Assembly: GCA_905182795.1 (NCBI GenBank)
Contig: CAJJCZ010000012.1
Location: forward strand, 437 to 64,436
Reading direction: 5' to 3'
DNA from: an uncultured bacterium
GTDB taxonomy: Bacteria; Fidelibacterota; Marinisomatia; Marinisomatales; Marinisomataceae
DNA: 64,000 nucleotides
This document shows positions 58,660 to 58,989 of the stretch, in pieces. The translations under genes were made by a program, and so were the position numbers. The notes below the pieces were generated by a model, which saw nothing but the letters and a program-made list of their open reading frames with translations, did no database searches and was not told where the DNA came from. Position 1 is the stretch's first letter. Each line of letters starts with the position of its first letter.

Positions 58660-58989
58660 ATGGCTCTAAAAATTAAACCACTTGAAGATAGAGTTATTGT
58701 AGAAGCAATGGCTGCTGATGAAAAAACAGCTAGCGGAATTATTCTACCAGATACAGCACAAGAAAAACCTCAACAAGGAACTGTTCTTGTTGTTGGTAAA
58801 GGTAAATCTTGTGATTGCAGTTGTTGTAAAGACTGTGATTGCTGTAAGAGCGACAAATGTTGTTCAGATTCTATGTCTGTGAAAGCAGGAGATAAAGTTT
58901 TATACGGAAAATATTCAGGCACTGAAATCAATCATGAAGGAAAAGATCTTCTTATCATGAGAGAAAGTGACATATTAGCAATAATTTAA
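58660..58989 (+). CDS. groES: Co-chaperonin GroES with a Cys-rich replacement of the roof hairpin
   Basis: Cpn10 N-terminus ([10 protein letters not shown]...[11 protein letters not shown] mobile loop) and C-terminus ([17 protein letters not shown]...[12 protein letters not shown]). These flank [29 protein letters not shown] Shine-Dalgarno upstream; groEL lies 13 nt downstream. Confidence 0.9.

Follow-up and report, generated by a model that had tools for sequence, protein, structure and literature searches.

The groES gene in a 64,000-nucleotide stretch of contig CAJJCZ010000012.1 from an uncultured bacterium (the whole stretch is called the window in the following) encodes a co-chaperonin of 109 amino acids with nine cysteines packed into 18 residues of its roof hairpin. 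The closest proteins carry the names Candidatus Marinimicrobia or Neomarinimicrobiota, i.e. SAR406. Few proteins are as conserved and as well studied as GroES, in which cysteine is rare. To our knowledge, the only characterised metal-binding GroES is HspA of Helicobacter pylori with its His-rich C-terminal tail. Judged by its sequence, the Cys-rich roof loop qualifies well as a candidate for a new addition to the chaperonin lid, with a metal-binding or redox function. We favour the reading that seven metal-thiolate loops would sit as a crown on the outer face of the GroES dome and store or buffer metal, by analogy with HspA, and assign it a probability of about 50%. New in this case would be a metal-binding-type appendage of GroES at a new site and with a new chemistry, metal binding being predicted. 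A first-pass annotation of the same DNA, made from the letters alone, knew of no published roof-loop Cys cluster, and indeed a search of the accessible literature, outside of which most subscription journals lie, turned up none in GroES.

The cysteine-rich roof segment

The gene and the parts of it that matter for the argument are the following.

58660–58989, + strand: groES (co-chaperonin Cpn10), 109 aa including the Cys-rich roof loop (PF00166 match, matches to GroES in the PDB, Cpn10 fold, dN/dS of the core)
58711–58767, + strand: mobile loop region, residues 18–36, with the hydrophobic tripeptide IIL (alignment to E. coli GroES)
58807–58878, + strand: Cys-rich roof-hairpin segment, residues 50–73, nine Cys, 13 residues more than the canonical loop (alignments, structures)
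58810–58818, + strand: 9-nt direct repeat tgtgattgc (Cys-Asp-Cys), copy 1 (sequence)
58834–58842, + strand: 9-nt direct repeat tgtgattgc, copy 2 (sequence)

Counted from the ATG at 58660, the cysteines occupy residues 51, 53, 55, 56, 59, 61, 62, 67 and 68, and residues 50–73 correspond to nucleotides 58807–58878; on re-reading, count and positions agreed exactly with the first-pass annotation. The distance from the GxG turn to the VKxGD motif amounts to 24 residues in comparison to 11 in most relatives, and the alignment with E. coli GroES and with solved structures places the 13 extra residues in the roof (dome) hairpin, so that both the length of the segment and its location had been recognised correctly. 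The annotation further held that the hairpin was replaced, which stands only in part. The tip has indeed been expanded, but the canonical descending strand still finds its counterpart in xSM[ST], with which the segment ends. Based on this alignment, the roof hairpin is expanded at its tip and not wholly replaced.

Cysteine accounts for 0.95% of the residues in the 51 long open reading frames (ORFs) of the window, which has a GC content of 31%. By arithmetic from this frequency, nine Cys in 18 residues have a binomial probability of about 3e-14 per position. Other 20-residue stretches of the window with at least five Cys were found in non-coding frames only, and none of the other real genes bears a cluster of cysteines.

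Outside the segment, the protein is the ordinary Cpn10 that it had been taken for, with both ends intact. Profile PF00166 is matched over its full length (positions 1–93 of 93) with 102.2 bits against a curated cut-off of 21.1 (E 1.6e-29), and Cpn10 is the sole Pfam family in the protein. GroES chains of the PDB match with E-values down to 3.8e-26, including 8WUC, 1HX5/1P3H and 1AON. The mobile loop, whose hydrophobic tripeptide contacts GroEL in characterised GroES, aligns to SAGGIVLTGSA of E. coli and, like the core, is near-invariant in relatives. The C-terminus is canonical (…ESDILAII) and bears no extension. The sole His of the protein, H92, is located in the core, and the insert is free of His.

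Similar loops occur in relatives from SAR406 and in Candidatus Roizmanbacteria, a second lineage discussed below. In both, the Cys-containing loops consist of 26–28% Cys and otherwise mostly of D, E, K, S and G, aromatics and His stay below 2%, and CC and CxC are the commonest motifs. Loop composition and motif counts hence bear out the metallothionein-like spacing that had been noticed in the single protein, and at the level of sequence they are the hallmarks of metallothioneins. As no Pfam metallothionein model matches the loop, the resemblance would be a functional one and not a family membership.

Authenticity of the gene

An index of public assemblies lists the exact 109-aa protein in 297 blocks. 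P0001, a variant with the exchange S64G that is deposited as GenBank MBC8226630.1 and under further accessions with no annotation beyond 'co-chaperone GroES', accounts for 339 blocks, and contigs with either form reach 362 kb. An assembly or frameshift artefact, against which the first-pass annotation had cautioned, is thus not what lies behind the segment, the frame being intact throughout. Nine loci with nine Cys are 94.7–99.8% identical to the window over 6.3 kb. All of them retain 9/9 Cys codons, and the changes in the loop are limited to two synonymous ones and one Ser-to-Gly exchange. The groES core outside the loop shows a ratio of nonsynonymous to synonymous substitution rates (dN/dS) of 0.03–0.06 in comparison with species at a dS of 0.34–0.53, and is under strong purifying selection, which indirectly favours a protein that would form the heptameric lid and assist folding by GroEL.

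The view that the gene is an artefact (assembly, frameshift or chimera) or a decaying pseudogene, with a canonical groES elsewhere as backup, could find some support in the several contigs that end in or near groES, including both contigs of the metagenome-assembled genome (MAG) JABHGE01, and in a few database variants with mismatched N-terminal halves (P0008, P0010, P0041). Against this explanation, the identical ORF recurs in hundreds of independent assemblies on contigs of the length given above, the frame is intact in every variant, the core shows the low dN/dS just described, and the gene is the groES of a groESL operon with no other Cpn10 in the window. The artefact version is effectively refuted, and for the explanation as a whole we see hardly any probability left.

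In GTDB, the only representative with the 9-Cys loop is the MAG JABHGE01 (SI037_bin197), whose assembly breaks inside groES. Its sample code SI037 presumably denotes the oxygen-deficient fjord Saanich Inlet. Two groES copies were considered for this MAG, with loop DNA present on two contigs. Both contigs (20 and 34; L097 and L098) end inside groES, however, and overlap by 141 nt (window 58806–58946), which leaves one broken locus. Other contigs with loop variants that end at groES are L091 and L092. This suggests that the assembler breaks at groES because loop-length alleles co-occur in the sample.

Two observations on database entries are added here. P0008, P0010 and P0041 combine a Bacteroidota-like or otherwise divergent N-terminal half with the Cys loop and C-terminal half of SAR406, and may stem from chimeric contigs or from recombination; the loop type of P0008 is real in any case, being present on a 59-kb contig (L189). 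P0077 (145 member sequences) ends in PVSYTHLRAHETN in place of LAIL, an ending which presumably goes back to translated sequencing-adapter read-through in short ENA contigs, which it resembles.

A graded loop series in SAR406

The search for homologues and their distribution revealed that the Cys loop is not a one-off: it stands at one end of a series of 0–9 Cys within a clade of SAR406, and Cys-rich roof loops are near-universal in Roizmanbacteria. Among the 120 nearest protein clusters the following loop types were distinguished.

Window and P0001: 9 Cys
P0003: 7 Cys
Type A variants, SC[DN]CDCCK[SG]DKCCS..: 6 Cys
Shorter or intermediate forms, e.g. FSDCCKEEKCCSGSMT, PSECSDCKCNDKCCSTLMT: 4–5 Cys
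Type B, KCDCKEGSCNDCSCCSKSA and shorter versions: 1–6 Cys
Type C, [MI]DCSKDSC..: 2 Cys
Canonical 11-residue loop: 0 Cys
Short 6-residue loop KDSSMT (91-aa proteins): 0 Cys

The gene order ispG-mscS-dut-groES-groEL is common to the 9-, 7- and 6-Cys forms and to the Cys-free 91-aa form as far as the contigs reach, and folB-folK continue the synteny after groEL; two of the 6-Cys contigs end at groES. From the shared gene order it follows that the loop variants are orthologues.

According to the DNA alignment, all differences in loop length are in-frame (18, 15, 54 nt and others). TGT and TGC swap at retained Cys codons, and the neighbouring residues change (D/N, S/G, S/P). As far as it can be read from the aligned codons, it is selection rather than drift that preserves frame and cysteines. 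The two copies of tgtgattgc begin at 58810 and 58834, 24 nt apart. Both copies and the local expansion that they had suggested were recovered, close relatives differing from the window by in-frame insertions and deletions (indels). In the clearest case, the 6-Cys allele L096 differs from the groES core of the window by one synonymous change and yet lacks 18 nt, in-frame, between the two copies of the repeat. Loop length consequently changes very fast.

Neighbour-joining (NJ) trees of MscS plus dUTPase and of GroEL agree in the topology ((9-Cys species, Cys-free 91-aa species), 7-Cys species). Outside of this group branch both 6-Cys types (A and B) and the 2-Cys form of type B, and further out the 2-Cys loops of type C and the forms with a canonical Cys-free loop. 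Bootstrap values, calculated both for MscS+dUTPase and for MscS+dUTPase+GroEL, are 100% for the first two groupings and 93–97% for the Cys-rich clade as a whole, with the Cys-free 91-aa forms (L001–L003) counted in. Homology between the type A loops of the forms with nine, seven and six Cys is plain. Since the Cys-free 91-aa form is nested in the Cys-rich clade, it is best read, on these trees, as a secondary deletion in which the cluster was lost; with its 6-residue loop it resembles the short-loop GroES of the Bacteroidota type. The opposite polarity, with the 91-aa form as the ancestral state and the cluster as a fresh insertion in the species of the window, was considered as well and is ruled out by the nesting in the NJ trees and its bootstrap values. 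Given its loss in a sister species, the Cys cluster is dispensable for the essential co-chaperonin job.

A second lineage and the wider distribution

An exhaustive phmmer search of 1.84 billion representatives returned, in the top 150, a single Cys-rich roof loop from outside SAR406 (P0250). Its relatives are Candidatus Roizmanbacteria of the candidate phyla radiation (CPR; Patescibacteria). Among the GroES proteins of this type, 119 of 120 clusters possess 2–7 Cys in a roof loop of 13–21 residues, e.g. DCCGGDCCDDDKKKCGGMV and SCNCKDCDCKKCDCGKMA, and in GTDB genomes the gene is also located directly 5' of groEL. Cys-free canonical loops of 11 residues occur in Woesebacteria, in some Roizmanbacteria and in neighbouring CPR lineages. 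Some of the Roizmanbacteria sequences have been available in GenBank and UniRef since the GW2011 bins of the 2015 era under the plain annotation 'GroES', and no published remark on their loops is known to us.

With the SAR406 proteins, those of Roizmanbacteria (KKP67157.1, UniRef100_A0A0G0BTH3, PIQ72836.1) have in common a Cys-rich roof loop, in their case with 2–7 Cys, the CC, CxC and CxxC motifs and the groES-groEL operon, and some of their loops read like SAR406 ones, e.g. SCNCKDCDCKKCDCGKM. They belong to another phylum, however, share 43–51% identity with the SAR406 protein and have loops with more Gly and Glu. Patchy in SAR406, the trait has come close to fixation in Roizmanbacteria. Judged from these comparisons, the Cys-rich roof loop arose independently in the two lineages. 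As a separate observation, four groES-groEL loci of Roizmanbacteria or CPR type (L099, L105, L106, L107) are titled 'uncultured Gammaproteobacteria', which is probably an automated mislabelling of CPR-type MAGs.

Of 132 roof loops sampled broadly from GroES representatives, 129 are free of Cys; three contain any Cys and two contain two or more. Short roof loops of six residues (e.g. KDEPMT), apparently of the Bacteroidota type, were found in 33 of the 132, and a truncated roof is thus not confined to phage co-chaperonins. A 117-aa GroES of another lineage (P0170) carries a 32-residue Lys/Glu-rich, Cys-free insertion at the same position, from which it follows that the site tolerates other kinds of inserts. 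Viral contigs yielded no Cys-rich GroES, with a best identity of 54%. In scans of metagenomes and of GTDB with the protein, few members of the clade were among the 600 matches listed. T4 Gp31, RB49 CocO and virioplankton GroES, which have no roof hairpin, together with the Bacteroidota-type short loops, characterise the loop as a plastic and dispensable part of the lid (PMC5649160). The deletions in the roof-less co-chaperonins are thought to enlarge the cavity, in contrast to the expansion with Cys chemistry described here.

These data bear directly on the question whether the insert has any function. Slippage on a short repeat could have produced a neutral low-complexity expansion, tolerated without function in a permissive surface loop. 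Such an origin would fit the roof-less GroES of T4, RB49 and virioplankton (PMC5649160) and the frequent 6-residue loops, the indels between near-identical alleles beside a 9-nt direct repeat, the loss of the cluster in one lineage and the long Cys-free insert of P0170. Drift at 31% GC and 0.95% Cys would not yield 50% Cys, however, and the cysteines are retained through synonymous codon changes. The independent Cys-rich loop of Roizmanbacteria, kept in 119 of 120 clusters, and the mere three of 132 loops with any Cys in the broad sample likewise stand against a neutral origin, which we regard as improbable.

Position on the lid and proposed function

In E. coli GroES, the roof hairpin comprises residues 44–58, with the tip residue Asn51 at the outer orifice of a hole of about 5 Å; this central hole of the dome is formed by the seven roof hairpins, whose tips are adjacent (PMC5653362). 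The canonical Cpn10 roof hairpin, including that of Mycobacterium tuberculosis (1HX5, 1P3H), corresponds to the one investigated here in fold, loop position and operon, but consists of 11 Cys-free residues in contrast to 24 residues with nine Cys. An AlphaFold2 (AF2) model of the monomer reaches a mean predicted local distance difference test (pLDDT) score of 63 overall and exhibits the Cpn10 fold, with template modelling (TM) scores of 0.6–0.7 to Cpn10 structures of the PDB at a probability of 1.00. In the loop, pLDDT falls below 50 at residues 50–56 and 67–69, and the 10-residue blocks 51–60 and 61–70 average 48 and 50. The loop is accordingly predicted by the model to be disordered without metal, as is the case for apo-metallothioneins.

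For the heptamer geometry of the loops, the metal binding and the physiological role we infer the following. With seven hairpin tips ringing the central hole of the dome, seven loops with 63 thiols would be crowded at the apex. Most likely they would protrude outward on the lid, because the canonical tip residue is already located at the outer orifice, a geometry deduced by analogy. There, metal-thiolate clusters could form within one subunit or across subunits, with soft or borderline ions such as Zn, Cd and Cu(I), and possibly also Ni, Co or Fe. As an accessory to a scaffold protein of very high abundance, the loops would store, buffer or detoxify metal, and the chaperonin function itself would be unchanged.

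The closest precedent is HspA, whose domain B is C-terminal and rich in His and Cys, binds two Ni per subunit and serves in nickel storage and detoxification (PMC5116745). The first-pass annotation had named it as a precedent at the C-terminus and not in the roof, and the literature agrees. Both proteins consist of a GroES core with an extra Cys-containing peptide in seven copies per lid, and that of HspA is needless for the basic co-chaperonin fold (PMC5116745). The tail of HspA, with about 27 residues including eight His and four Cys, radiates from the rim, whereas here the C-terminus is canonical and it is the roof hairpin, at the apex, that carries the nine Cys of the His-free insert. Homology between the appendages does not exist, and with thiolates as the only ligands the metal preference here is likely to differ. 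Other known variation among chaperonins includes His-rich GroEL tails (PMC5904260).

Similarities to metallothioneins, among which the fungal Cu-metallothioneins may be named, comprise a Cys content of 25–50% combined with Lys, Ser, Asp and Gly, the lack of aromatics, the CC, CxC and CxxC motifs and the predicted disorder without metal. The M3S9 cluster of the mammalian metallothionein beta-domain is formed by nine Cys ligands, the same count as in the roof loop. Metallothioneins are free-standing small proteins, in contrast to an internal GroES insert of 18–24 residues present in seven copies in a ring. Unlike the bacterial SmtA and BmtA, the roof loop has no His ligands.

Several observations weigh against a role in metal storage. 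No metal-homeostasis genes are adjacent to groESL, and the window is filled with housekeeping genes. A second, canonical groES may exist elsewhere in the genome, outside the 64-kb window. The hmmscan of the loop alone against Pfam, with E up to 10, returned no family, which is a weak negative in view of the shortness of the segment. Dense acidic residues adjoin the cysteines, which is less typical of classical metallothioneins, and the trait was lost in a sister species without a known ecological correlate. The seven-fold symmetry does not match known cluster stoichiometries, and 7 × 24 residues have to be packed at the apex, for which the model is a low-confidence monomer only.

Instead of a store, the Cys loops could be a structural clamp that binds metal or forms disulfides between subunits and thereby stabilises the heptamer, or stiffens or closes the roof. 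In favour of a clamp, the seven hairpin tips are adjacent around the hole (PMC5653362). Among the closest solved relatives are 1HX5 and 1P3H, and both trait-bearing lineages are small-celled and uncultivated. Taneja and Mande are reported to have found in 2001 that, in M. tuberculosis Cpn10, divalent cations attach to the acidic dome loop and affect the oligomer. The sister species manages without the cluster and with an even shorter loop, however, the number of Cys varies from 2 to 9 among close relatives, which is unexpected for a precise clamp, and the GroES core is otherwise unchanged. A clamp thus appears unlikely to us.

We consider a redox switch slightly less probable still. In that case, a Zn-thiolate or free-thiol cluster would be oxidised to disulfides under stress, similar to Hsp33, and would either change the lid by gating of the orifice or by altered GroEL affinity, or serve as a thiol buffer that is sacrificed. 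Among chaperones, redox switches made of Cys and Zn are established for Hsp33 and DnaJ. Both possess Cys-Zn sites, that of Hsp33 being a redox switch. The dense vicinal CC and CxC pairs of the roof loop favour disulfides, and the Cys of HspA domain B form vicinal disulfides (PMC5116745). The presumed origin of JABHGE01, the sole GTDB representative with nine Cys in the loop, from oxygen-deficient water would also fit. A conserved Hsp33-like CxC...CxxC spacing is missing, however, as the loops vary widely. A use for oxidative signalling is less evident in Roizmanbacteria, which are regarded as fermenting anaerobes, and no redox genes are adjacent to groESL. Hsp33 and DnaJ serve as a functional analogy only, with unrelated folds, fixed Cys spacings and no sequence relationship to the roof loop.

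The outward crown of metal-thiolate loops remains our preferred reading. In a wider form, which we hold more tentatively, GroES would double as the metallothionein of the cell. Its seven-loop crown would have arisen independently in marine SAR406 and groundwater Roizmanbacteria, would be tuned by rapid in-frame expansion and contraction between 0 and 9 Cys per subunit, and may link the chaperonin cage to the metal or redox state of the cell.

Operon and genomic setting

The remaining features of the locus are listed below.

58651–58655, + strand: Shine-Dalgarno-like GGAGG, 5 nt 5' of the groES ATG (read from the sequence)
59003–60640, + strand: groEL (Cpn60), 545 aa, with a GGM-type tail at its end (PF00118, E 2.8e-77)
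60667–60694, no strand assigned: palindromic hairpin with a GC stem and A and T runs on either side, probable terminator of the groESL operon (12-pair stem)

The groEL ATG follows 14 nt past the groES stop and is preceded by its own AGGAG at 58990–58994. The arrangement is best explained by co-transcription of groES with groEL, in which case this gene would be the working GroES of the organism. The hairpin between groEL and folB is a perfect palindrome (AAAAAACCCTCA…TGAGGGTTTTTT) and is listed on the minus strand. It is self-complementary with T runs on both sides, and could bring about transcription termination in both directions. A promoter scan gave sites no more numerous than in shuffled sequence, and by eye no CIRCE-like inverted repeat was seen 5' of groES.

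The window represents core chromosome, with fab genes, sucCD, aconitase, two parts of the dcw cluster, polA, ispG, mscS and dut 5' of groESL and folB and folK on the 3' side. As a side observation, the dcw cluster is split (window 16585–29202 and 51329–55218): mraZ-mraW-ftsI-murD-ftsW-murG-murC-murB-ftsQ-ftsA-ftsZ are found together, and murE-murF-mraY are located 22 kb off beside ispG. The ORFs at 50869–51414 and 62332–62970 (both + strand; 181 and 212 aa) matched no Pfam family at E up to 1e-5.

Significance

Both lineages that carry the Cys-rich roof loop are uncultivated and ecologically important. The alleles with 0, 2, 4–7 and 9 Cys in otherwise near-identical proteins constitute a ready panel for experiments. 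If the metal-binding reading is true, these proteins would form a new class of metallo-co-chaperonins, distinct from HspA, and would offer protein engineers a natural seven-fold display of metal-binding loops. For bacteria with small genomes, the loop would then represent an unnoticed route to store or buffer Zn, Cd or Cu, or to sense redox status, by means of an abundant scaffold, and would bear on trace-metal cycling in the ocean.

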